From Cetorhinus maximus (lineage: Eukaryota): a stretch of DNA of 64,000 nucleotides. How positions within the stretch are numbered: position 1 is the stretch's first letter; each line of letters begins with the position of its first letter. A program made the position numbers and the translations under genes. The stretch spans positions 23,746,001-23,810,000 of the forward strand of contig NC_135906.1 of the NCBI RefSeq assembly GCF_964194155.1, given 5' to 3'. Positions 3,959-61,632 of this stretch are shown here, piece after piece. The notes beneath the pieces are model-generated. The model ran no database searches. It had not been told where the DNA came from and was given only the letters and a program-made list of their open reading frames with translations.

Positions 3959-5680
3959 CTATGGGCCCTGACAGTATTCCGGCAATAGTACTAAAGAGAA
4001 CTTGCCGCACCCCTAGCCAAACTGTTCCAGTACAGCTACAACATTGGCATCTACCCGGCAATGTGGAAAATTGCCCAGGTATGTCCTGTACACAAAAATC
4101 AGGGCAAATCCAACCCGGCCAATTACCGCCCCACCCCATCACTCTACTCTCAACCATCAGTAAAGCGATGGAGGGGGTTATCAACAGTGCTATCAAGCGG
4201 CACTTGCTTAGCAATAATCTGCTCACTGACATGCAGTTTGGGTTCCTCCAGGGCCACTCAGCTCCTGACCTCATTACAGTCTTGGTTCAAACATGCACAA
4301 AAGAGCTGAACTCCAGAGGTGAGGTGACAGTGACTGCCCTTGACACCAAGGCAGCATTTAACCAAGTGTGGCATTAAGGAGCCCTAGCAAAACTGGAGTC
4401 AGTGGGAATCAGGGGGAAAACTCTCCGCCGGTTGGAGTCATACCTAGCACAAAGGAAGATGGTTGTGGTTGTTGGAGGTCAATCATCTCAGCTCCAGGAC
4501 ATCACTGCAGGAGTTCCTCAGGGTAGTGTCCTAGGCCCAACCATCTTCAGCTGCTTCATCAATGACCTTCCTTCCATTGTAAGGGGGTGTTCACTAATGA
4601 TTGCACAATGTTCAGCACCATTCGCGAATCCTCAGATACTGAAGCAGTTCATGTCCAAATGCAGCAAGACCTGGACATTATCCACATAATGTAAAAGCAA
4701 AATACTGTGGATGCTGGAAATCTGAAAAAAAACCCAGAAAATGCTGGAAAAGCTCAGCGGGTCCGACAGCATTTGTGGAAAGAGAAAAACAATGTTAATG
4801 TTTCAAGTCTGTATGACTAGGATCATACGGACTCGAAACGTTAACTTTGTTTTTCTCTCTGGACAATATCCAGGCTCGGGCTGACAAGTGGCAAAAGTAA
4901 CATTTGCACCACACAAGTGTCAGGCAATGACCATCTCCAACAAGAGAGAATCTAACCATCGCCCCTTGACGTTCAAGGCATTACCATTGCTGATTCCCCC
5001 ACTATCAACACCCTGGGGTTACCATTGACCGGAAACTGAACTGGACTAGCCATATAAATACTGTGACTGAAAGAGCAGGTCAGAGGCTAGGAATCCTGTG
5101 GCGAGTAACTCACCTCCTGACTCCCCAGAGCCTGTCCACAATCTACAAGGCACAAGTCAGAAGTGTGATGGAATACTCCCCACTTGCCTGGATGAGTGCA
5201 GCTCCAATAACACTTAAGAAGCTTGACACCATCCAGGACAAAGCAGCCCGCTTGATTGGCACCCTATCCACAAACATTCACTCCCTCCACCATCAATGCA
5301 CAGTGGCAGCAGTGTGTACCATCTACATGATGCTCTGCAACAACTCACCAAGGGTCCTTAGATAGCACCTACCAAACCCACGACTGCTACCATCTAGAAG
5401 GATAAGGGCAGCAGATACATGGGAACGCCATCACCTGGAAGTTCCCCTCCAAGTCACTCACCATCCTGACTTGGAAATATATCGCTGTTCCTTCACTGTC
5501 GATGGGTCAAAATCCTGGAACTCCCTCCCTAACAGCACTGTGGGTGTACCTACACCACATGGACTGCAGCGGTTCAAGAAGGCAGCTCACCACCGCCTTC
5601 TCAAGGGCAGTTATGGATGGGCAATAAATGCTGGGCCCAGCCAGCGATGCCCACATCCTATAAAATGAATTTTTAAAAAT
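3959..5680 (+). mobile_element. 5'-truncated LINE (CR1/L2-group reverse transcriptase), decayed and interrupted at 4685-4858
   Basis: RT fragments 'NPANYRP', 'QFGFLQGHSAPDL', 'GVPQGSVLGP', 'YKAQVRSVMEYSPLAW'; 3' tail ggcaataaatgctgg...cccacatcc...tgaat. Confidence 0.9.
4685..4858. mobile_element. Palindromic PLE-terminus-derived short repeat inserted in a LINE
   Basis: 'aaatactgtggatgctggaaatctgaaa...gctggaaaagctcagc' arm followed by an inverted partial arm; flanked by ctggaca(t/a)tatcca at 4671-4684 and 4859-4872. Confidence 0.8.
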
Positions 5681-14960: not shown

Positions 14961-16984
14961 ATCCCACCTGTAATGAATGAAGACTGGGAATTCCACAGTC
15001 CCTTACACCCGAGTCAGCCCTGACTGATGGGATGACAGGTCTCTTTCTGGTGACTCTAAGGATCCTACGCAACACGAGTTTAGAAGATTAAAAAAGGAGG
15101 CCAATCAATCCGTGAAGGCACATTTCCCATGGACATTGTACAATCTGTCATGAACTTCAATTTTGTTGACTCCTGGAGCCTTCCAATTCCCATAATTGTG
15201 CAGTTAGTTGAAGGGGTCACTAGGTGGCAACCAGGAGTTGGACACTGGCTGATGTTCTCTCTCTCTCTCTTCCATCCTAGAGCCTTGAGCTGGGAATGCT
15301 TGATGTTGACACTGGGACAATGAAATGGGTAGAGAGTTCCATTTCCTAGCACTAATATTCCTAACCTGCTGGGCACAGAAATGTGTACATGCTGTTCAAC
15401 AATCTTAATCTGCTCACAAAGTCTACATGCATCTAGTCATAGTCCCAAAGGACCATAGGTATCACGTCTGCAGCAGAGGTGACATTTTTGGCTACTCGCA
15501 GCCTGAGGGGTGTACTCTGCAAGTGTGGGGCAAGGTGAGGAGGCAGGGTCTCCATGAACTACCACAGCAGGTACAGGGATTGAACCCATGCTGTTGGCAT
15601 CATTCTGCATCACAGTCTAGCCAATGAGCTAACTGACCCCCCCACGACATCTACATAGAAGTAAAACTTCACACAGTAAGTCACCCACCCATAAAACTTA
15701 TTGCCAGAAAGTATCAGTTAAGACCCCGTGTCTTGTAGAATGACGCAACACAGAATGAGGCCATTTGGCCCATCGTGCCTCTGCCAGCGCTCTAAAAGAG
15801 TTATTCAATTAGTCTCACTCCCCTGCCTTTTTCCCACGGCCCTAAAATTTTTTCCTCTTCCAAGCATTTCGCTAATTCCCTTTTGAAAGTTATTACTGAA
15901 TCTGCTTCCACCACGCTCATTCAGGCAGTGCATTCCAGATCGCAACAACCCGCTGCTTATAGGTTGGGGCGTGCACTGCGCGAGAGCGTGCTGGAGGCAG
16001 ATTCAATCGTGGCTTTCGAAAGGGAACTGGATAATTATCTGAAGAGAAAGAATTTGCAGGACTACGGGGAAAAGGGGGGTTGTTGGGGGGGGTGGGGGGG
16101 GCGGGGTCGGAGTGAGACCAGCTGAGTGGTCCTTACATCGAGCCAGTAGGGGGCGTGACAGGTCGATTGGCCTCTTTCAGAGCTGTAAACATTCTATGGT
16201 TCTGTGATTCATCTCCACACCTCCCCTGCTGCACCCCCACCCACTTGACATTATTTCCACAGCAGCTAAAAATAGGCGGGCTTCCTTATCTTGATATTCA
16301 CCGTGAACGTTCTTTAGAACCCATAACAAAAGATGTTCTTTATTATCAAATATCTCTTGAAGAGGCTGACACCTCCTGGGATAGAATACTAGTTGAATAC
16401 AGGATAGTGATCAGTAGTGTTAAACCTTGCTTCCCCTCTCTCCCTTCCCCTTTATATTGCTGTGGGGAAGGGAGGGCTGGATGCATTTTGATCCATGTAG
16501 CATTTTCACTGTGGCACTAGCTAAGATTCACTAGCTCATCAGACCTGGGACTGAACCCAGGGCTCTCTTAGTTTATATGACTCAGCCTAGACCAGGACAG
16601 TATATTTACCTACTGAGATATCTGAGGAAGACAAAGTGTTCAATAAGATATATTTACTCTGGTTTTAAATTGTTGGTTGAAGCAGGAAATTGTCATCAAG
16701 TCATTGAAATCTGTACAGGTGTGTACAGCAGCAAACACTGCAGACTGCGCCCCCACCAGGCCTAGACTTCACACTGCATGTGCAAAGACATCATTCCATA
16801 ATTCTTAATTTCAACAATATTACTTTGACTCCATTTTGTCTACAAATATTAATTGAAAAAATTATTTGTAGGGAACCTTAACATTTTTATTTAGTTAATT
16901 TTCTCCTCCCAAGGGAGCTACCCTTGCATTTCTTCTGAGTGTCTTCTGGTACCTTCACTCATTTACCTCTCCTAAGTGGTTATT

Positions 16985-17240
16985 GTGGCAGTCTTGTGGT
17001 GCAGTGGGTAATGTCCCTGCCTCTGAGCTAGAAGAGCCAGGTTCAAGTCCCACCCAAGGACTTGACAGCCAAGGAAGGTGTGTTTGTAACATGGCAAAAC
17101 TGGTTGAGTATCAATCTGCAAATCCTTGCAATATATGCCATGTGATGGAAAGGACATTGGAGTCTCTACCACCACTATCCATAGCACTGGACTGTTTAAA
17201 AAAAAACATGCATGTTACCACAGCAACCCAGACTGTTGGC
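16985..17240 (+). mobile_element. tRNA-headed SINE of a third family (other copies ~55005-55210 and ~57945-58225)
   Basis: Three copies share 'gtcttg..gcagtgggtaatgtccctgcctctgagc..ggttcaagtcccac..ggacttgacagccaaggaaggtg..tatcaacctgcaaatccttccaa'. Confidence 0.7.
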
Positions 17241-17507
17241 TGGATGGCCAGTGTAGATCAGATTGGGGCTTGATTTCCATTCTAGCTGGGGTGGATTTGG
17301 GACCTGCTTCTTTGCCAATGCTGTGGATCAGTCCTGCCTTTGTGCAGAGGAGTGGCTGTAGGCATCATAGCCTGCTACTGGAGAACAATCAGCAGGAACA
17401 TGAGACAAATTCCATCCTCTCCACTGGCCTACAGGTACCACTGTGATGTTGGTCTAGTCAGAGACTGTCTGCAGGTACAGGAGGAGAGGAAAAAAATTAT
17501 ATAGACA

Positions 17508-17698
17508 CAAAAATAAAATGCTGGAAATACGCAGCAGGTCTGGCAGTATCTGTGGAGAGATAAATAGGGTTAACATTTCATCAGAACCTGAAACATTAGC
17601 TGTTTCTCTCTTCACAGATGCTGCCAGACCTGCTGAGTATTTCCAGCATTTTCTATTTTCTTTTCAGATTTCCAGCATCTGCAGCATTTTGTTTTCGC
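17508..17698. mobile_element. Palindromic PLE-terminus-derived short repeat
   Basis: 'tgctggaaatacgcagcaggtctggcagtatctgtggagag' mirrored by 'ctcttcacagatgctgccagacctgctgagtatttccagca'. Confidence 0.8.
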
Positions 17699-18230
17699 AT
17701 TTATATAGTGCCTTTCATGACCTCAGAATGCCCCAAGTCCTTACAGCCAATGAAGCACTTCGGAAATGTAGTTGTAATTGTAGGAAATGAGGCAGCCAAT
17801 TGTTGTACTGCAAGCTCCCACAAGCAGCAAAGTGATAATGACGAGATAATAAAAGGAAAATACTGCAATTGCTGGAAATCTGAAATAAAAACAGAAAATG
17901 TTGGAAAAGCTCAGCAGGTCTGGCAGCATCTGGAGAGAGGGGAGGGAGAAGAGTCATACGAACTCGAAACATTAACTTTGTTCCTCTCTCCACGGTTGCT
18001 GCCAGATATGCTGAGTTTTTCCAACATTTTCTGTTTTTATTTACAATGGCTGGACAACCTTTATTTTAATGATGTTGATTGAGGGATAAATATCAGGCAG
18101 GTCATGAGAACTACCCTGCCTTTCTTAGACATAGTGCCATAGGATCTTTTATGTCTAACAAGAGAGGGGCGATGGGGCCTCGGTTCAACATCTCATCCGA
18201 AAGACAACCCCTCCGACAGTGCAGCACTCT
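17695..18230 (-). mobile_element. DeuSINE-like SINE interrupted by a PLE-derived repeat
   Basis: Tail 'gcatttatatagtgcctttcatgac'; body resumes at 18041. Confidence 0.7.
17851..18040. mobile_element. Palindromic PLE-terminus-derived short repeat nested in a DeuSINE-like element
   Basis: Forward arm 17851-17940 and inverted arm 17948-18040 with gagtcatacgaactcgaaacattaact; the SINE resumes at ~18041. Confidence 0.8.
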
Positions 18231-20004
18231 GGTGTGGTTCAACAGACACTAACAGCTTTCTGGTAGCTCAACTTTAGCTGGATGTGATCTGCTTTGCACC
18301 TCCTTGTAACCAGCCAAATATCTGGAGCAGCCCAGTGGGAGGATTGTGAATATAAACTTGTGGGGTAATGGTTGTTGGTGTTGCAATTGCCATTGTCAAG
18401 AGATCTAATACCTTTTGCCCCTGCTCGTCATGTGAAACTCCATCAGAAATGTACTTTAAGCATGAGACCTTAAAACCAATAGTTGTGTTAAAGGCTTTAT
18501 TGAACTGCATTGTGCACTGATTGTTGATTGTAGATTTTTTTCTAAAAACTCCAACATTTAAACAATTAAAAAGGAAATTCGAAAGCAGAAATACAAACTT
18601 TTGGATAAATCTCGACTATCTGGGATACCTTTATATTCAAAATAAGTACAATTTACAACAGTACACTTTCCAACCCCTACTCAAACATTTGAAAAATAAT
18701 CACTTATGGATCTGCCTCAAGTGGCGACAGAGAACACTCAGCACTCACTGGTGTCTTGTTTATGAAACCATTCTGTTGTAATTTCAACTTCACAATATAA
18801 ACTGCAGCCAGGTTAGTTATTATTAAAATTAAAGATCTTTGTGGAGTTTTTTTTTTGGGGGGGTGGGTTATAGACAGTGACCAGAAGCTGCAGTTTTATT
18901 TGAATCGCTGCAGAGAAACAGAGGGAAATTTTTTCTTTAGAAGCTAGGTTGAAGCTGCTCTATGTAAGGTTATGGGTTCAAACCCTCACTACAGCATTTG
19001 AGCACATTGTCTAAAATTAACACTTTCAGCAGATCACCGAGTGCTCAGGAATTGTCAGAAATGGGGCTTTCATATAAGATGCTTAAATTGTGGCACTATT
19101 TGCTTGTTCAACTCTGTAAGGCGTCCCACAGTGCTACGAGGAGCGGGGGAAGCTCTCCAGTTGCCAAGGGTTATATGTTAAAACATTGTGAACTTATCAC
19201 CACTAAAAACAGATGAACTGATCACTGGTGATGAGGGGAAAAACTTCATGCAGGGAGTGGTTAGGATCTGGAATGCACTGCCTGAATGTTTGGTGGAGGC
19301 AGGATTATTATCTGAAAAGGAAGTATGTGCAGTGCTATGGGGAGAAGGCCGGGGAGTGGCACTAGGCTATATTGCTCCTTCAGAGAGCCAGCACAGACAC
19401 AACAGGCCAAATGGCTTCCTTCCGTGTTCTATTTTATGATTTCATTCTTTCAGGCCTTGCGGTGCACGAACTGGCTCACTCATCAGTGACTGCATAGCTA
19501 AGGACCTTCACTGACTAGGAATCATCTCAGAGGATGACCTGAGGACATGATAGGCGCTATACAAATGCACTATTTTAAAACTCAATTGGATGTGGCTCAC
19601 CTAAATTTCACGTTTTCTTGTTACCGGCACAATTCTTGCTGGGACTCTGAATCCTCAGGGATCAGTACGCTGTTCTGCCCAAGTAGCTGTACATGTATGT
19701 ACGTGCTTAGTGAATGGCATTAGACTATTTGACTAGAAGAGGGCATCCCACCCGAGTCCATCCTCACTGGTCACCCACCCATGCGGGCATTGAGGCAGAA
19801 CTCATCCAAGACTAAACCTGTTGCTCTCACGGTATCTATGACCAAAGCACCACAGCCGCTGGTGCATTTACCCAGTAATCCACTGAGGACAATTATAGCT
19901 CATTGTTTTAAAAAGCAAATTGAGTACTACCTATTGGTACATACAAGTGGATTAGCATCGGGCAGTCCCAATATCTCAGGGAGGCAACAACTGATTTTGT
20001 CATT

Positions 20005-20105
20005 AAAAAAACAAGATGCTGGAAAAGCTCAGCTGGTCTGGCAGCATCTGTGGAGAGAGAAACAAGATTCAACATTTTGAGTCCGTATGATTCTTCTTCA
20101 GGGAC
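20005..20105 (-). mobile_element. Single-arm PLE-terminus-derived repeat
   Basis: 'tgctggaaaagctcagctggtctggcagcatctgtggagagagaaac...gagtccgtatgattcttcttcag'. Confidence 0.7.
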
Positions 20106-23990: not shown

Positions 23991-24541
23991 AGAGCTTGAG
24001 TATTGCTGAAGAGAGAGATGCTGTTGAAGTTTTTTGCCTTGTACTCATTGGGACAGTATCGCAAGAATACCAAATCTCAATGGGACACAACAATTTATAC
24101 TGCATGAGAAGAGGGTGCTGATTGGTTGGCAAGTGAACTCTGATTGGTAGAGGCATTGCCACAGAGAGTGCGCCAAGAAACAGTTAACTGCCAAGCTTTT
24201 TGTTTCAATTCAAACCAGGCAAGTCGACCCCAAACTTTTGTTTAGTTGAGAAAAGGGGAACAGTCATTTTCCTTGGCTCGTTCCCCATGGCGTATGACCT
24301 TGACCAGAGTCGACTTGCCTGATTTGAATTTAAAAAGCTTGGCAGTTAATTGTCCCCTGGTGCATTCTCCATGGTAACTCCTCTACCAATCGAGTCCACT
24401 TGCCAACCAATCAGTACCCCTTTCTCAGGCAATAAAAATTTGTTGTTTCCTTTGAAATTTGGTATTCTTGTCATTCTGTCTGGATGAGTACAACACGAAA
24501 AGCTCTGATAACATGTCTTTTTTCAGCATTACTCATGTGCT
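23991..24541. repeat. Long inverted repeat (~240-bp arms, ~75-bp spacer) in GET3 intron 6; probable PLE-type inverted termini or MITE-like element
   Basis: Arms 23991-24230 and 24307-24541 are reverse complements, e.g. ctgattggttggcaagtgaactc / gagtccacttgccaaccaatcag and caggcaagtcgac / gtcgacttgcctg. Confidence 0.85.
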
Positions 24542-24744
24542 GTAACGATATTAAGCTGCCAGATCAGTTTCATTCAGGCAGTGCTAAAGGCTTGAACAAA
24601 CCAGTTAAAAACAAAAAGCTTTGATTGATTCAACAATCACAAGCATCCTGAACTCAGGCATCAGAAGCTAATTTGAACAGAATTAAGTACTCATTTTAAA
24701 TTCATAGCTGTTGAAAACAAAGCAAAATCTATCGGTTCATTCAA

Positions 24745-24850
24745 CACAAAAGCAGAATACCGCAAATGTTGGAATCTAAAATGAAAACAGAAACTGCTGG
24801 AAATACCCAAGTCAGGCAGCATCAATGGAGAGAGAAATAGAGCTAACTGT
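24745..24850 (-). mobile_element. Degenerate PLE-terminus-derived repeat (GET3 intron 6)
   Basis: 'aaaagcagaataccgcaaatgttggaatctaaaatgaaaacagaaactgctggaaatac...agagagaaatagagctaac'. Confidence 0.65.
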
Positions 24851-24974
24851 TTTTAATATTGGAGTTCGCAGCCCGGTCAGTAATTTATCCCTCTCACTTC
24901 CTCCTTGCCCTCTTCCACTCCCCTGCCAACCTCTCTCAGAGTCCTTACATTTAAACTTGGATTGCATTTGCTTT

Positions 24975-28215: not shown

Positions 28216-28671
28216 CTGAAATGCAGGCAATGATTAAATATGTGCACAGCTCGATCCAACAACCAGCACAAAGATTACACTTATCACCGACAATTCAAGT
28301 ATCAATTATTCGAAATTTAAATGTTTGCATACCATCACAGCCACCTTAATTGTTTTTATTTTAAAAGTCAATGCATGCAGCCTTATTTACATTTATTCTG
28401 AAGCAAGGTATCCTAGCTAATTTTAATCCAAAATACTGCATGCTCTAACATTAAAGACTGACTTTAAAAATGCACGCTATTAAGTGTGGAAGACCACCTG
28501 TACACAACAAGAATTTGCAGGTATCACACCAGTGATTCACCAACGTGCACAGCAAGATTCCACAGCTGTTCGGCACCAAGATCAGCTAAACCAGAACAAA
28601 CTGGATATTTGTCAACCAGTGGAAAGTCTCACCCAACTCCTGTATAAGTGTGTCACACAGGATCTGTTACG

Positions 28672-28900
28672 GAATAAAAACAGAAAATGCTGGAAAAACT
28701 CAGCAGATCTGATAGCAGCTGAGGAGAGAGAAACAGAGTTAACATTTCGAGTCTGTTATGACTCTTCTTCAGAGCTGAGTCATAAGGACTCGAAATGTTA
28801 ACTCTGCTTCTCTCTCCATAGATGCTGCCGGACCCGAGTTTTTCCAGCATTTTTCTGTTTTTATTTCAGATTTTCAGCATCCGCAGTATTTTGTTTTTAT
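28672..28900. mobile_element. Palindromic PLE-terminus-derived short repeat in GET3 intron 4
   Basis: Arm 28672-28776 mirrored by 28777-28900. Confidence 0.85.
28737..28776 (-). ncRNA. Minimal hammerhead-ribozyme-like motif in a palindromic PLE-derived repeat (GET3 intron 4, sense to GET3)
   Basis: Minus strand reads AGCT-CTGAAGA-A-GAGTC-ATAACA-GACTC-GAAATGT-T-AACT: canonical CUGANGA and GAAA with a perfect 5-bp helix II; helix I has one mismatch and ACGU has decayed to AUGU. Confidence 0.55.
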
Positions 28901-29488
28901 CTGTTTACAGAATATACTTTGATTAAGTACAGTTGAGACCATTGTGTGGTATAACATCAGAGATATACAGCAGATTCCAAGGCATAAGTGATTGCTAAGT
29001 TTTACAACAACCCAAACATATGCAAGTTTTAAATAAACTTTTAGGAGACCCTGCAATTAGACAGTGCCTCAGGGGCTGAATAAAAACTGTACTTAATATA
29101 CATAGAAGACTCAGACTTTGTTTAGCGCTTATTTCCCTTCACCTGATCTTGTTCCCTTCTCTCAGTGATTTTTTTTTAATTGAGTTCTGGTGCAACAACC
29201 CCCTATTATTTTGAAGTGACATGTATAACATAGGTATTAAGTGTTGGGAAGCTTTTTGTACACAGGGAAAATATCTATTCTTGCCCACTTTCCAGTTGTG
29301 GACACCAATGGTATACAGAGCAGGAATGCTGTCATATTTCATTTTCACCCACTTCCTAGCCCATAGAGGCTCAAAAGTACCACACCCAGCACCTTTACCT
29401 ACCGACAGAGCAACCACAATCTCATTCTTAACACCAATTTCCCTTCATTCTATTGTCTAATAGGTTTCAGAGCAGATGAAGCCACTAC

Positions 29489-36060: not shown

Positions 36061-36664
36061 CTCCGATAGAATCACGTGAAGGGGGGAGGGGGGGAAAGGG
36101 GGCGGGCCTCGAACTTCCTCCCTTTCTATTTATTTATCGATAATTTTAAAAAGACAACCGTCCTGAACATCTAACGACTTTTAGTGCCAGTGACAGCCGG
36201 GAAGGGAACATCGGCCGACAGGTTTTACTTTACATTACATTACAAGCATTCCTCACACCACGACCCCTCTCCATCGTCAACGCTGATTGGCGCGGGCCTG
36301 CTCAGTAAAATACATTCCAATTGGTTAGGCTACAATATAATCAAAATCCTATTTTAAAATAAATAGCTTTACAACTCCATGATTATTAAAATGAAGTTGT
36401 TCGTTTTTTAAAATAATTAAAATCTGTTTTTGATGCAGCACTGTTTAAAGATCCGTCATGCTTTGCGCCTTTCCGTTGGCCCACCTTTTTTCACATTTAA
36501 TTACCGCCAAAGCTTTTGCCCAGCCAGCATAGCAAAGTTTTTATTTTTTTTTGGCAGTAATGGGTCTGAGCCGTCCTCTGTCTTGTTTAGCGCGCATTCA
36601 AAAAAAAAAGAGATTGGTTGAGGTGGCTATCTCCCAGAAGCCTCGGCGGCCTCTGTTCCCCAAG
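36061..36664. promoter_or_regulatory. Bidirectional promoter shared by GET3 (-) and TRIR (+)
   Basis: Divergent start codons about 600 bp apart. Contains TCACGTGA E-box (~36072), GC box GGGGCGGG (~36099), CCAAT boxes (ctgattgg ~36283, ccaattgg ~36317, gattgg ~36612) and YY1-type AGATGGCG over both ATGs; both first exons are CpG-rich. Confidence 0.85.
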
Positions 36665-36952
36665 ATGGCGGACAGGCGGAGGAGCCGCGAAGTTTCTGGA
36701 AGCTCCGAGGCGAGCGACACGGACGGTGGTGGCGGCGGCGGCTCGGAAAGCAAAGGGGTGAACGCCTTCGCCAACGATGGTAGCTTCATGGCGCTTTTCA
36801 AGAAGAAGATGGAAGAGCAGAAGCTGAGGAGTGAAGGGGGAGCCGCGCCGAGCGGCGGGGATATAGACAATGGAGGCAAGAGGAGTGTGGCCGCTGGCCA
36901 GGAGCAAAGTAATGAGGCCCAGAGCGACAGGAAGAAAAGCGTGCTGAATATT
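36665..36952 (+). CDS. TRIR: TRIR (C19orf43; telomerase RNA component interacting RNase), coding exon 1
   Basis: ATG in AAGATGG context; family motif VNAFANDGSFMALFKKKMEE; donor ATT|GTAAGA; 288 nt, phase 0. Confidence 0.93.
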
Positions 36953-38194
36953 GTAAGAGCGAGAGATTTTGCTCTCAATTTGCCTCCTGGTTAATGAGCA
37001 GGGCTGGGAAGTTGGAAGATGCTGTTAGTTCATTCCCCCTCTTCACCCCTCTCCTCACCCTACACCCCCCCCCCCCCCCCCCCAAAAAAAATGTTATCCA
37101 CTATCTTGCCTGAATTTACATTTTGATTCCTTCATTCATCAATTGTAGAGGCAAATCAGCTCCTTTTATAAAAATGCAGTTTCACGTGATCGCCAGAGCA
37201 TTTTAAATCCAGCCCTGAATTTTCTTTCAAAGCAAAAATCTCAGCCAAAGGTTTGTAAGTCTGAAATAAAAGCCACAAATGCTGGAAATACAGGGTCAGT
37301 CAGCACCTGGAAAGATAAAGGTGTGATGCTCCTCTGGACTGATGGATTGGCACGGTGCCAGCTGTTGCTCAGTGGGTGGTGCTCTTGCCTCCTGAGTCAG
37401 GAGCTTGGGACTTTGAGCCCTACTTCAGAGACTTGAGCAAGTATTCCAGGCTGATACCTCAGTGCTACACTGTCTTCCAGATAAATATTAAACCTTGCAT
37501 TTAATGGGTAAGGAGAGGCAATATAAATGAAGTGGCCTAATTTTTATGGAGACACAGGAATAGTAAAAACTGGTGACTCACATGCACACATCTTTGAAGG
37601 TGACAGGACAAGATGAAGCTGTTTTAAAAAGCATAGTTGACCCTGGGCTTTATAAATAGAGACATGGAGTGCACAAATGTAGAAATTTTGAAGTTACTGG
37701 TTTGACCTCAGCTTGGAATGTTGTCTCCAATTCTGGGCACCACACAGTGGCAAGAATGCCAAAAATAAAGGTTTATAACACATACATACAAATAGCCTTT
37801 TCCCCTTGAGCTGCTGGTTGACCTGTGCATTTCCAGCATGTTTTGTTTTTTGATATCAATGTTTAAATTGTCTTGACATACTCCCATTCAATGAGGACTT
37901 TTTCTAATGGGTTCTCATAAAATTTTCAATTGTTCTTTCCTCTTTGTCGGACTGAGTTTACAGAGAATTGTTCTGTTTGAGAAACATCATTTTCGCAGAG
38001 GGAGCAGGAACTGTCTCACTAAACTTAAAAATTGTTGGTCATTTTTAAGTATGACCTTGTTTTCTAAAGTAAACACAATTCTCCATTGGTTTCTTCTCTT
38101 GCTATGGATGCTAAGACTTCTGCAATCTATCATTAAATTTAACTTTATCATCCTTAAAGTTGCAGTGTAAATACAGAGTTACTGAACTTGGAGA

Positions 38195-51007: not shown

Positions 51008-51210
51008 GATAAAAGCAAAATGCTGGAAATCTGAAACAAAAAACAAAAATTGCTGGAAAAGGTCTGACAGCATCTGTGGAGAGAAAGACAGAGTTAACGT
51101 TTCGAGTCCGTATGACTTCTTCAGAGCTAAAGAGACATAAAAATGTGGTGAAATATAGTGTTTGGTTGTGGGGGGTGGGGGGGGAATGTGGAAGTTGGAT
51201 AGAAGGCAAG
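51008..51210 (-). mobile_element. PLE 3'-terminal fragment, with an inverted partner fragment at ~51423-51472
   Basis: Same terminal repeat followed by a G-rich segment resembling 56130-56210. Confidence 0.75.
51092..51128 (-). ncRNA. Degenerate hammerhead-like motif in a PLE-derived repeat
   Basis: Minus strand AGCT-CTGAAGA-AGTC-ATACG-GACTC-GAAACGT-T-AACT; a 2-nt loss removes the closing pair of helix II. Confidence 0.45.
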
Positions 51211-51714
51211 CCACACGAGGGCGCAGCTCCAGAATTAAAAATTGGAATGACTGAATCTTTTGGAATAACACGCACCACAGTCTCAAATGGAATATACATG
51301 GAAAAAAAATACTTAAGCAGCTCGCTTATAAAGACAAGGTGATTACAGGAGTGATGCTGAGTGGAGGAGAAACAGATTAGTTAAATGGAATTCTGCTGGC
51401 TTTGGTGTCAACTGGTTAAAACTCCACCGATGCTGCCAGACCTGCTGAGTTTTTCCAGGTAATTCTGTTTTTTGGTTAAAATGGATACTGGGACAGATTG
51501 TCGTGTGCTAAAGCGCCCGTTCTGAACCATTAAGAGCTGGTGCAAATCTCGCCAGAATTATGATTGCCAACTCAGTATAATTACAGATAGTTGCAGGTGC
51601 AAGAAGGCAGCTTAAAATGAAAGTGGAACATTATATACAAGGAAAATTTAAAGGGACCTTAAAGGGAAGTAGAAGAGGGACAAAGGTCTTGGTATGTTAT
51701 CGCAGTTGTTGTTC

Positions 51715-54984: not shown

Positions 54985-55986
54985 CTCTCGTCAGTGTTCG
55001 AAGGAGGTCTTGTGATACAGTGGGTAAAGTGGGTACAGCGTCCCTGCCTCTGACCCAGAAGCTCTTGGTTTGAATCCCACTCCAGGACTTGACAGCCAAG
55101 GAAGGTACGTTCATAATGAGGCCAAACGGGTATCAACTTTTTTGTAAATCCTTCCAACAAACTTATGGCAGGCGGTAAGAGCGGGAGAGATTCCTGGTCA
55201 GCCATGCTTGATGCAAGCTATAGCCCCTGGTGTCAGGCTGATGACCTGTTCCAGGAACAAACTAGCCATAAAAACGGACATGAGCATGTGCTTTGTCTGC
55301 CTCATGAAAGGAGAGCTCCAAGTCTAAACCAGTGTGCACTGCTGGACTGTCTGCACATGGATATGTCTGTGATAATGATTCCATTCTGTGCTTAAATAAC
55401 ACACCAAAAGTGGCTATGTACCACTAAGGTGAGGTGGGAGTACAGTCATTCCTGGTGCAATCATACCCCTGTCTTGAGTCAGCTTCAAGAGATCCTTTTA
55501 TCCCTCTTCCAAACAGAAATCAAGTCCAACTAATGCTGAAGTGCGACTGTTCTGAGATTACCTGAAACCTAACCAGCAGCTCTGAGAAATCTTAACGCTC
55601 AACATTCGAGCCTTTTGAGTGCAAATGGTATCGCCTGATAATAATCCACAATTTAATATCTGGAATGGGCAGTTGTCTTATGAGGAAAGGCTGGGCAGGC
55701 TAGGTTTATATCCACTGGAGTTGGGAAGAGTAAGAGGTGACTTGAATGAAACATATAAGATCCTGAGGGGTCTTGACAGGGTGGATGTGGAGAGGATGTT
55801 TCCTCTTGTGGGAGAATCTAGAACTAGGGGGTCACTGCTTAAAAATAAGGGGTCGCTCATTTATGACAGAGATGAGGAAAGATTTTTTTCCTCTCGGAGG
55901 GTTGAGTGAGTTTGGAATTCTCTTCCTCAAAAGGTGGTTGAAGCAGAGACTTTGATTTTTGTTAAGGCAGGAGTAGATAGATTCTT

Positions 55987-57078
55987 ACAAAAAGCCAAAA
56001 GCTACTGCGGATGCTGGAAATCCAAAACAAAAACAGAATTACCTGGAAAAACTCAGCAGGTCTGGCAGCATCGGCGGAGAAGAAATCAATTAACGTTTCG
56101 AGCCTTCATGGCCCTTCGGCAGAACTGGAGCATAGTTACAAGAAGGGAGAAATATAAATTGGTTTAAGGTGGGTGGGCGGGGGGGTGGGGGGGGGGCGGA
56201 GAGACACATTGAGGGTGTGGTGATTGTGGAGATGAGCAGATAATCAAAAGATGTCACAGACAAAAGGGTCAAAGAGGTGTTGAAGGTGGTGGTATTTGTC
56301 TGAGAAAAGTGCTAATTAAGAATGGAAGACAGGATATTCAAAGTACAGCTCTAGTGGGGGTGGGGTGGAAAGACTAAAGGTTTTAGTTTTAGATTTAAAA
56401 ATAATGGAAATAGGTGGGGAAAGAAGAATCTATATAAATTATTGAAAAAAAAAAGCCGGGGGGGGGAAAGAAACGGGGTGGGGATGGGGGGAGGGGGAGT
56501 TTAAGATCTAAAGTTGTTGAATTCAATATTCAGCCCGGAGGGCTGTAAAGTGCCTAGTCGGAAGATGAGGTGCTGTTCCTCCAGTTTGCGTTGGGCTTCA
56601 CTGGAACAATGCAGCAAGCCAAGGACAGACATGTTGGCAAGAGAACAGGGTGGAGTGTTAAAATGGCAAGCGACAGGGAGGTTTGGGTCTTTCTTGCGGA
56701 CAGACTGCAGGTGTTCCGCAAAACGGTCGCCCAGTTTGCGTTTGGTCTCTCCAATGTAGAGGAGACCGCATTGGGAGCAACGAATACAGTAGACTAAGTT
56801 AGGGGAAATGCAAGTGAAATGCTGCTTCACTTGAAAGGAGTGTTTGGGCCCTTGGACGGTGAGGAGAGAGGAAGTGAAGGGGCAGGTGTTGCATCTTCTG
56901 CGTGGGCATGGGGAGGTGCCATAAGTGGGGGTTGAGGAGTAGGGGGTGATGGAGGAGTGGACCAGGGTGTCCCGGAGGGAACGATCCCTACGGAATGCCG
57001 TCAGGGGGGGTGAAGGGAAGATGTGTTTGGTGGTGGCATCATGCTGGAGTTGGCGGAAATGGCGGAGGATGATCCTTT
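55987..57078 (-). mobile_element. 5'-truncated Penelope-like retroelement with GIY-YIG endonuclease frame and 3' terminal repeat
   Basis: ORF 56501-57094 contains CxxxRCxTC, 'VYCIRCSQCGLLYIGET', 'RFAEH', 'HF' and 'GLN' typical of PLE endonucleases; flanked by the direct repeat GATAGATTCTT at 55976-55986 and 57079-57089. Confidence 0.92.
56088..56126 (-). ncRNA. Minimal type-I hammerhead-ribozyme-like motif in the PLE terminus (variant core)
   Basis: Minus strand reads AGTT-CTGCCGA-A-GGGCC-ATGAA-GGCTC-GAAACGT-T-AATT: helix I, CUGANGA-like box (A6->C), helix II, GAAA, palindromic ACGU in place of helix III. Confidence 0.5.
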
Positions 57079-59621
57079 GATAGATTCTTGACAAGCAAGG
57101 AGGTGAAAGGTTATCGGGGGTAGGCAGGGATGTGGAGCTGACGTTAAAATTAGATCAGCCACGATCTTTTTGAATGGTAGAGGAGGCTCGAAGGGCCGAA
57201 TGGCCTACTCCTGCTCCTATTTATTATGTTCCTTAAAACAGGAGGAGCTTAGATGAATGTATTTCGTACCGTACAATTTGAACCCAAAGAGGTTTCATTT
57301 GCTCACATTCCTGCCCAGGCTCCATAAGAACAGGAGGTCATTTAGCCCCTCAAGCCTGTTCTGCCATTCAACGAGATCGTGATCTGTGACTTAACTCCAT
57401 CTACCCACTCACCTTAGCCCCATATCCTTTAATACCTTTGGTAAACAAACATCCATCAATCTCAGTTTTAAAACTAACAGTTGATCTTGCGTCAATTGCT
57501 GTTTGCAGAAGACAGTTCCGAGTTTCTACCACTGTGCGTGTGTAGAAGTGTTCCCTAATTTCACTCCTGAAAAGTCTGGTTCCAATTTTTAGACAATGCT
57601 CTCTAGTCCTAGAAACCCCGGGCAAGTTGGAAACATAAGGCTGCCCTAGGATACGGAACCAGAGAGACCAGGAAGGTTCTGGCTTCAACCCCGGTCTGTA
57701 CAGGGTCGATGGATCTCAGTTGAGATTAACATCGTTGACCTTCCTGAATTCTGCTGGAGTCTCCAGGAATGAAGGGTTAGTCTCCTGAAAGCTGCTGCAG
57801 CCCAGGGAAGGGAAAAAAAAATCATGTGGACATTGAAGTGTTTTTCGTTTTCTATGAACTTTTTGTTATTAGTTGTAAAAATATTGGAATATGGAGGGAA
57901 GAAAGTGTTGGATGATTCTTGAGTGGCTGTTAAGGATTCTAGGAGGTCTTGCAGCATAGTGAGTAATGTCCCTGCCTCTGAGCCACGGGTCCAGGTTCAA
58001 GCCCCACCTCCAGGATTTGATGACCAAGGAAGGTGCATTCATAATGCGGCCAAACAGGTCGAGTATCAACCTGCAAATCCTTCCAACACACGCCAAAGGC
58101 AGGCGGTAAGAGCGGGAGAGACTCCTGGTCAGCCAGGATGGAACGTTGGAGCCTCTACCATCACTGTCCGCGGTTCCAGACTACAACATGCATGCAAAAG
58201 TGTACGTTACCACAGCAACTCCGGCTCCCTGGGTGAACTGTAACACACCCTCACCATCAAATACTCTATTTGCTTTCCACTTGGCATGGGAAGGCAGAGC
58301 CCTGTGAGGATGGACAGAGTGGCAAACAAAGGCAGGAGGCATGTGATGATACCTCCTGGCTTGGCAACCCTTGGTTGCATTAGGGGTTGGATCACAATCC
58401 AATGATCCTCTGCTTGACAGTGCACATCAGTAAAGGGTAGGATAGGTCCCAGCCCATTGTCAAATAACCTGCCTGCACTCACAGTCCAGCCTGGTGCCTG
58501 AAGGCAGATAACTTGAGTATGACAAGGGAGAGCAGCAATCACCCTCGGAGAGCCCAGCGGTGGGGAAGCAGACTCACAGATGGCACCAAGTTACAAAGGC
58601 ACTAGATTCAACAGGCCCGAGGAAGGTCTGCATTTCAACACTTCAAATGGTAAACAAAACAATCCTTCTATTACTTATAAATATTTAAAGGGAAAAAAAA
58701 ACTTCAGCGCTGTGGGGAAAATGAACTAAATGAGCAGGTCTACCAACAAGCCAGTACAGACATAAGGGGCCAAATGGCCTCCATTTGCACTGTAACATTT
58801 GATTATTCTAATTGGCTATTTTTCAGCGTTTTGGTTCATTAAATCGCACAAAATTTCAGAAAATCTGTTATTTGAGCACTTTGGTTACAAGCTTTCTGCG
58901 GTAAAGGATAAAGTGCTGTGAGACTGATTGAATCAAAGTCTTTCTGGCCAATCCCTCTCTAAGGCTGCGGGAACTCGTTCCCTTATTCCATACGTCATTG
59001 CTAGCTGACAGGGGGACTTCACCAGCTCTCTAGCGTTCCGGCAGTCCGCTGCATGGAAACCCCTCCCAGGGTAGCCTCTGAAATGTACCCGCCCTTCACC
59101 ACCCACCTCCCCTCCCCACAACAGCGCAGGGAAACGCACGAGCTCCACACTGCACTTCGCTTCCAGCTGGCCAGGATCAGCGTTCCAGTGGTGAAGCTGA
59201 TGGGTGCAAAATGTCGACACCTGACATCCACCACAGGACCCAGCAGGCTCTGCAAATCAGTGGTTAAAAAGTAAACACGAACCAAGGCCATCTTGCTTAT
59301 TCGAAGGCAATTAGAGGTGGGCAACTCCCACATCCCGTGAACGAATAAAATAGAAACCCATCAGTGGCGGACTCAGAATAGGTTGTGCTAGAAGTTCAGC
59401 TGCCCCTGGTGCAGCACCGAGCTGGCTGATCTCAGCAGGGGGCTAGGGTTGCAGCCAGCCGGTGCAATCCCCCTCAGCACCACGGGTCAGAGGAAGGATA
59501 GTCTGAATTCCTGCCAGTCCAGCGACAGCTGAACAAGTGATGCTCAGCCGCGGAACAGAGAGAGCACGTGCACAGGAACACTCACCAGCTCGAATCTCCT
59601 CCTCCAAGTCGCACAGCTTCC

Positions 59622-60679: not shown

Positions 60680-60851
60680 TCAGTTGGTCTCGTAGGATGA
60701 GAGCAAAGCCGCGTCTACGGGTTCCATACATGAAGGGCACGTGAAGGATCTCATGAGCCACTCATCAATGCATTCCATGTGGTATATGTGCATACATGGC
60801 AGAAACCGGATAGGATCGCCATACACAAAGTCCATCATACAGATCACACAC
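60680..60851 (-). CDS. RNF11: RNF11-family E3 ligase, final coding exon with RING-H2 (ECVICMMDFVYGDPIRFLPCMHIYHMECIDEWLMRSFTCPSCMEPVDAALLSSYETN*)
   Basis: Acceptor CCTTCTAG|; C3H2C3 RING-H2 pattern and RNF11 C-terminus SSYETN; TGA at 60682-60680; phase matches exon 2. Confidence 0.95.
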
Positions 60852-60944
60852 CTAGAAGGGGAAACAAAGCATAGATTAAATGGTACAATTTTATAAAGGG
60901 TGGGGGGAGGGGGGAGGGAATGAAGGAGCAGGGAGATCTTGGGG

Positions 60945-61632
60945 ATATACCCACATACACAAATTTTTGAAGGTGGCAGAAATGGCAAGAAGGTTGGTTT
61001 AAAGTTAAAAGCACAGAGGATACAAATGCTGAACTTCATAATAAATACAGACACAGAGTAGAAAGTTATGGTGAACCTTTATAAATCTCTGGTTAGGCCC
61101 TCAGCTGGAGTAGTGTGTCCAATTCACGTTAGGAAGAAGTGTCAAGACCTTGGAGGGTGCAGAGGAGATTTACTAGAATTGTACCAGGGATGGGGGAACT
61201 TCAGTTATGTGGAGAAACTGGGACTGTTCTTCTCAGAGCAGAGAAGGTTAAGGGGAGATTTAACTCAAGGTGTTCATAATTCTCAGGGGTCTTGATAGTT
61301 TCCCCCGGTCTACTCTGTTTCCAGTTGCAGGAGGGTCAGTAACCAGAAGACATAGTTTCAAGATAATTGGGGGAAAAATATAGCAGGAGTGGGGGAGAAA
61401 TGAGAATTGTTTTAACCATTGTGTTGTCTTAATGTGGAAGGCGCTGCCTGAAAGAGCGGTGGAAACAGATTCAATAGTAACTTTCAAAAGGGAATTGGAT
61501 AAATACTTGAAGGGGAAAAATTTGCAGGGCCACAGGGAAAGAAATTGAGCGGGTATGACGAGTTATACAACTCTTTTAAAGAGCGGGCAAAGGAACGATG
61601 AGCCACACAGTCTCCTTCTGTATGATTCTATG
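60945..61632 (+). mobile_element. CR1-like LINE fragment (RNF11-like intron 2)
   Basis: 'NLYKSLVRP', 'SYVEKLGLFFSEQRRLRGDL'. Confidence 0.8.

Follow-up and report, generated by a model that had tools for sequence, protein, structure and literature searches.

Head-to-head Penelope-like element ends in a shark GET3 intron probably arose as one-off by-products and not from a self-spreading ribozyme family

Does the short palindrome at positions 28672-28900, in intron 4 of the GET3 gene of the shark Cetorhinus maximus, belong to a ribozyme-bearing family that spreads in its own right, with junctions set by ribozyme cleavage, or is it a by-product of a larger retroelement? In the 64,000-nucleotide stretch of DNA analysed here (the window), this insert is a head-to-head pair of arms of the pLTR of a Penelope-like element (PLE), with a tail on one arm and a decayed target-site duplication (TSD) of about 15 bp (Table 1). 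Positions in the terminus are counted from +1, the A opening the 5' strand of hammerhead helix I; on this scale the predicted hammerhead cut falls after +35, and 3' ends are of two kinds, near +105 and near +137. The seven coding exons of GET3 are on the minus strand and, as the preliminary description had it, the insert lies inside intron 4 with its hammerhead-bearing arm in sense.

Table 1. Features of the intron-4 insert and of related copies in the window.
Feature	Position	Strand	Details
GET3 intron 4 (host)	28220..29488	-	
Target-site duplication, left copy	28662..28676	+	About 15 bp; overlaps the final bases of the short arm
Target-site duplication, right copy	28899..28914	+	By eye
Short arm of intron-4 insert	28673..28776	-	Spans pLTR +1 to about +105 without a tail; same sense as GET3
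Long arm of intron-4 insert	28777..28900	+	pLTR +13 to +137; tail of about 32 nt; without CUGA
Inversion junction of intron-4 insert	28776..28777		0-2 nt microhomology
Minimal type I hammerhead motif	28737..28776	-	Core scan, architecture as in the relevant part of PMC4209133, and folding
Independent fold-back	4689..4860		Long arm starts near +14 and 3'-short arm near +12; TSD of 14 bp
Independent fold-back	17504..17695		Left arm to about +2; helix II deleted (by eye)
Independent fold-back	17849..18049		One arm starts at about +38 to +44, the other at about +7 to +11
Solo arm	20001..20101	-	Start near +5
Solo arm with tail	24744..24852	-	Start near +29
Subfamily B copy	51009..51206	-	Native upstream sequence kept, with TATA-like box
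5'-truncated ORF-bearing PLE, subfamily A1	55985..57080	-	GIY-YIG part, 3' UTR, TATA-like box, hammerhead motif, tail

At the junction of the intron-4 insert, the left arm ends at +1 (or -2) and the right arm begins at +13 (or +15), and the distance from the centre of the fold to the predicted cut is 35 nt for the left arm and 23 nt for the right arm. Compared by eye, the flanks of the insert match in 14 of 16 columns, with one indel and one substitution, and an ungapped scan scores the TSD at only 7 bp. The hairpin has a folding energy of -123.6 kcal/mol (z = -14.2 against 200 shuffles). The insert belongs to subfamily B, an older subfamily with a mean identity of 0.88, and it looks old itself, since contigs of a second organism label enter its arms from both flanks; judged from these contigs, the insertion seems to be shared with the second label, and no empty site was found among the contigs aligned to the insert. 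No sign of function was seen for this copy, which is an ordinary product of a known class.

The PLE terminus recurs throughout the window. In addition to the copies in Table 1, arms are located at 663-725, 37254-37316, 37807-37850, 51407-51479 and 55994-56196, the intron-4 pair being matched at 28671-28900; the recurrence reported earlier is real; the profile had no match on reversed sequences. The arms near 37255 and 37790 are weak (E = 4e-6 and 2e-3 in the profile search). Those near 51008 and 51423 are probably two insertions, as they belong to different subfamilies (B and A1, respectively) and the roughly 200 bp between them does not align to the family. At least four inverted two-arm copies had been counted before, and those at 4689, 17504, 17849 and 28671 bear this out, all being head-to-head with junctions within the hammerhead span. 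Two older palindromes, at 23997-24535 (within GET3 intron 6) and 15826-16075, have arm identities of 74% and 68% and do not match the PLE-terminus family. On the plus strand, the window also contains an exon of a gene divergent from GET3 exon 1 (36533-36994), which we take to resemble TRIR/C19orf43, and a RING-H2 exon (60680-61078), presumably similar to the C-terminus of RNF11.

The ORF-bearing copy in the window has a GIY-YIG domain above the cut-off at 56504-57154, and elsewhere the full-length candidate L230 encodes RVT_1 (E = 9e-7) and GIY-YIG (E = 3e-4), both slightly under the cut-off, in one 646-aa frame; L230 and the other such candidate, L231, are both 5'-truncated. By eye, the linker between the reverse transcriptase (RT) and endonuclease (EN) parts of the protein has a three-cysteine motif. 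We assign the elements to the EN+ PLEs based on an RT followed by GIY-YIG, a pLTR with a minimal type I hammerhead, a tail at one end, an inverted 5'-truncated copy and a TSD; the parent ORFs examined are of subfamily A1 and the intron-4 insert is of subfamily B. A donor-like AG/GTAAT at about +84 in subfamily A (56046-56052, minus strand) is absent from B and may mark an intron of the element.

A profile search of 157 evenly spaced 10-kb stretches (1.57 Mb of the 3.99-Gb genome) returned 173 arms and 21 head-to-head pairs with a close junction, while the reversed control, made on the first 117 stretches and the window, gave 0 arms. Scaled up roughly, the genome would contain about 440,000 arms and about 50,000 fold-backs (53,000 as scaled). 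Long copies sort into five subfamilies, four of which have fold-backs, and the 3' ends are bimodal, at about 100-113 and 130-137. Three individual loci have unusual structures: L214 (C1:17447750-17448200) has two short extra pieces of the +1 region between its arms, as if priming had been retried at the template end; the arms of L228 (C1:116375950-116376400) differ at one subfamily-separating site, reflecting either two templates or a single mutation; and L125:3807-4159 is a three-arm cluster, with two arms in tandem on the minus strand and one inverted.

A scan of the window identified three core-like hammerhead matches, of which only the one at 28772 (minus strand) belongs to this PLE family. 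This match retains, as previously described, CUGAAGA, GAAA and a 5-bp helix II, along with a bulged A: the 5' strand of helix I (28776-28773) is followed by CUGAAGA (28772-28766), the bulged A, helix II (28764-28760/28753-28749) and GAAA (28748-28745), with the predicted cut between 28741 and 28740. The ACGU needed for a dimeric helix III has decayed to AUGU, and helix I contains one C-A mismatch. Within the palindrome, the predicted pair probability of helix II is 0.000 and GAAA is predicted to be fully paired; for the arm alone, helix II reaches 0.03. The folding model thus predicts a dead ribozyme, unable to fold. An Rfam search returned no hammerhead family match, and its sub-threshold miRNA-hairpin matches at the palindromes were taken as chance. 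The full core with ACGU is kept in only 4 of 27 short subfamily B arms, and among short arms there is no clear signal of selection on the core, with non-CpG changes at 19/267 in the core and 161/1678 elsewhere. Two further observations concern ribozymes in a wider sense. A sub-threshold match to the CPEB3 (HDV-like) ribozyme model at 58010-58084 on the plus strand (26.7 bits, E = 0.007) lies inside a three-copy repeat, with the other copies near 17013 and 55040, and may be a repeat-borne HDV-like ribozyme. Genome-wide, the uncut hammerhead motif is found 5865 times in forward and 2220 times in reverse orientation, other anchors being balanced; a large one-strand tandem array of hammerhead units could explain this skew.

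The intron-4 copy had been placed in a non-autonomous family that is mobilised by the PLE machinery and looks like a MITE but is retro-derived. The retro-derived nature and the MITE-like look are upheld, and manufacture by the PLE machinery is most likely. The idea of a separate family is not supported, since junctions and lengths vary and the fold-backs occur in four subfamilies, each with its own variants. Junctions varied both in the 30 best genome-wide matches and in 25 pairs, and the exact junction of the intron-4 copy occurs five times genome-wide; given this variation, the origin of each pair from one subfamily and the rarity of the exact junction, we see no master element. The commonest symmetric junction (369 copies) is explained by AGCT. 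Among 18 young loci picked by eye, 17 of them two-armed, the arms have subfamily variants in common in 16 of the 17 pairs, which is equally compatible with one template or two.

Each fold-back instead carries marks of its own insertion. In 48 pairs with both arms near full length, 30 of them selected by similarity, the TSD score is at least 8 in 30 pairs; among 2256 mismatched-flank controls, 1.1% score as high. The median TSD is 13 bp. One long (tailed) arm is combined with one short (tail-less) arm in 43 of these 48 pairs; among the 18 unselected pairs, this combination is seen in 14 (p = 0.015, tested against 50%). The second arm ends at +40 to +74, at no fixed site, in several of 26 fold-backs drawn from the unselected set (22), the window (4) and loci L208-L211 (4, selected). 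Three classifications were rejected: a non-autonomous family with a master copy, as neither a fixed structure nor a fixed junction was found; a MITE, because of the unequal arms, a TSD of 8-16 bp and the variable length; and a non-LTR retrozyme, because the insert is an inverted pair with one core and not a direct tandem of intact hammerheads. The end-piece inserts are probably one-off by-products and not a self-spreading ribozyme family.

The arms stop at +1 far more often than at the predicted cut. Two joined cleavage products would give a palindrome centred on the cut. Genome-wide, 369 exact 22-nt palindromes are centred on +1 and 0 on the predicted cut; the uncut control motif has 8085 matches. 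Breaks were also counted by eye in the 15 bases upstream of fixed anchors, for the first 100 matches listed on contig C1, with a pattern that excludes C at the first place and with two loci appearing twice in the subfamily B +1 set. Among the matches listed, 39 of 100 in subfamily B depart from the native upstream sequence within about 5 nt of +1, and 14 of 100 in A1 do so within 3 nt of +1, whereas breaks at the cut number 9 of 100 (B/C), 1 of 100 and 1 of 100 (two A variants), with Fisher p values of about 1e-6 and 7e-6. Unselected subfamily B arms start 25 times at -12 to +5, 26 times at +6 to +31 and six times at +32 to +40; in one unselected pair, L092, the arms join exactly at the cut (+36/+36). 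The clustering of junctions at the ribozyme, which had been noticed before, is thus upheld, but not the proposal that cleavage defines where the template is switched: the junctions lie near the ribozyme since its 5' edge is the boundary, not because of cutting.

Base pairing at the junction has a part in this pattern. In subfamily B, the antisense arm can pair with AGCT and with the upstream pyrimidine tract, so that the +1 peak may be inflated, and perfect palindromes are also found upstream of +1, at three young loci and at L056. Due to this pairing in B and the centring of the three young upstream palindromes on self-complementary words, we consider that microhomology contributes. The antisense arm also mimics the upstream tract, so that independent local alignment overshoots subfamily B junctions; calling both arms by a joint split is better, yet misplaces some pairs (L129, L131, L142 and L173), and we therefore placed weight on the pattern counts.

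What, then, is +1? Of 35 long copies, 27 have TATA[AT][AT] at -28 to -31, and the motif is matched just once elsewhere in the upstream sequence; +1 itself stands in what we take to be an initiator-like context. From this motif spacing we infer that +1 is the likely PLE transcription start. The spot, a pyrimidine tract with AG, also resembles a 3' splice site, and in Drosophila Penelope an intron ends at the corresponding spot and the promoter is internal and TATA-less. In the upstream listings of B and A1, no spliced upstream exon is common to the broken copies; a cap-derived G at -1 is not evident in the break listings of B and A1, and the -1 base is C in 12 of 14 A1 breaks. A pair of TATA and initiator-like motifs in a rotifer pLTR (Adineta Pen2a) is described in a part of PMC3846280. 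The putative start-site boundary is the only addition made here to the published architecture; among the openly accessible article texts searched, no paper on shark PLE fold-backs or on such a boundary was found.

We consider it fairly probable that the intron-4 insert arose in a single event, with both nicked strands priming in uncleaved PLE RNA and being extended to or near its likely 5' end. In such an event, both nicked target strands would prime reverse transcription inside the uncleaved RNA. If priming takes place some 105 or 137 nt inside the RNA's 5' pLTR, it would yield short cDNAs that run off at +1; at the 3' pLTR, it would yield long truncated copies. The two cDNA ends from the staggered cut would then be trimmed and would anneal through 1-6 nt of microhomology, giving a head-to-head insert with a TSD. 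The short products, without a TATA box, would probably be dead on arrival. Whether most short shark PLE copies are likewise paired run-off copies of the first 105-137 nt of uncleaved mRNA is, in our estimate, an even question. The single-event model draws on the sections of PMC11167929 on another PLE in vitro: there, cutting and extension affect both strands, reverse transcription starts internally at two sites on either side of the tail, and the main template is uncleaved RNA. If the run-off reading is true, the junctions map the PLE start (TATA at -30, start at the first helix I strand), and the ribozyme would sit at the very front of the mRNA, where cutting removes the cap and does not shape the insert.

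Other routes could lead to similar inserts. No special RNA end is needed if twin-primed, 5'-truncated cDNAs simply join at self-complementary words, with +1 favoured by AGCT/CAG and the pyrimidine tract. This would fit the perfect palindromes on AAGCTT (-34) and ATATAT (-30), the 1-6 nt overlap at many junctions and the palindromes at pLTR 5' ends mentioned in part of PMC3846280. We regard it as unlikely, however: in subfamily B, 0 palindromes are centred on the longer self-complementary GTTAAC at the cut; breaks at +1 are also seen in solo arms and asymmetric pairs (14 non-fold-back rows among the 100 B matches listed); and A1, with little local symmetry, has 14 breaks at +1 per 100 matches listed, compared with about 5 per 100 between -6 and -12. 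Even less probable is a single cDNA or antisense RNA that folds back, self-primes and copies the second arm, as outlined in a passage of PMC3846280. The variants common to both arms in 16 of 17 pairs and the sometimes far shorter second arm agree with such copying, and only one of the 17 pairs differs, at one site (L228). Yet the zero-spacer palindromes, centred on the self-complementary words AGCT, AAGCTT and ATATAT, leave no hairpin loop, so annealing of two cDNA ends is favoured over a loopless hairpin or self-priming; moreover, the second arm usually ends at about 100-113, as unpaired arms do (59/132), and both strands were extended in vitro in the experiments covered by that portion of PMC11167929.

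Closest to the idea in the preliminary description is a loose non-autonomous pool of short pLTR-only RNAs, transcribed from promoter-bearing truncated copies and mobilised in trans, to which we assign the same low probability as to self-priming. Short arms do outnumber long ones in B, upstream sequence is kept in 17 of 95, and pLTRs suffice in trans according to a section of PMC3846280; against this stand the lack of a master junction (five exact copies), the formation by every subfamily of its own fold-backs and the short copies without a TATA-like box. Hammerhead self-cleavage as the maker of the template end, and hence of the junction, is refuted as the main route and very improbable, with a minor share possible. 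The +36/+36 join of L092 and the 9 of 100 B/C copies that break within about 4 nt of the cut, among the matches listed, are what such cleavage would leave. Opposed to it are the 0 exact palindromes at the cut, the single break per 100 matches listed in each young variant, the absence of an excess in B (six arm starts between +32 and +40, compared with 26 between +6 and +31) and the in vitro finding, in the relevant part of PMC11167929, that cleavage is unnecessary.

The inserts matter beyond this intron. Tens of thousands of fossil junctions bear on how the inverted ends of PLEs form and on the role of the hammerhead; they speak against a template defined by cleavage and suggest a start site at the 5' edge of the ribozyme. 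Hairpins of this kind can be mis-filed as MITEs or as ribozyme elements.

Several known systems resemble parts of this picture. In L1 twin priming, the second primer comes from the other nicked strand, and retroviral strong-stop DNA is a run-off at the 5' end of the RNA. Unlike the products of L1 twin priming, the shark arms overlap on the template, so that two RNAs, or re-use of one, are needed; the likeness to strong-stop DNA is analogy only. An inverted copy, a tail, a TSD and a junction palindrome are described for PLEs in passages of PMC8557442, PMC3846280 and PMC8969392. The EN+ PLE insertion units in the first two of these, with an inverted 5'-truncated pLTR and a one-sided 30-40 bp tail, are like the shark inserts in their head-to-head arms, one-arm tail, TSD and junction overlap, as well as in the TATA and initiator-like pair of the pLTR (Adineta Pen2a). 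The shark arms differ in consisting of the pLTR alone, with a TSD of about 13-15 bp as against 8-10 bp in Adineta, and the shark fold-backs number about 50,000; the start-site boundary is absent from the passages of PMC8557442 and PMC3846280 compared.

As treated in part of PMC4209133, the minimal hammerheads of metazoan PLEs likewise have a bulged base before helix II, a palindromic 15.2-16.2 and a short helix I, and are mostly solo, with some opposite-strand pairs 100-700 bp apart; the intron-4 copy, in contrast, no longer has the ACGU palindrome and is trapped in a hairpin. Palindromic derivatives of PLEs do not feature in PMC5753468. For Poseidon of Anolis (PAc), the sections of PMC11167929 compared also show a spacing of about 30 nt between two 3' ends and no indication of insert ends being set by ribozyme cleavage, but those sections do not address inverted products, and the RT-EN linker of the shark protein looks cysteine-rich, in the manner described for Neptune. 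Finally, the animal non-LTR retrozymes of the relevant part of bioRxiv 10.64898/2026.07.22.740005 are, like the shark inserts, PLE-derived and ORF-less with a type I hammerhead; they are direct tandems with at least two intact hammerheads, whereas the shark inserts are inverted, dispersed and mostly decayed.
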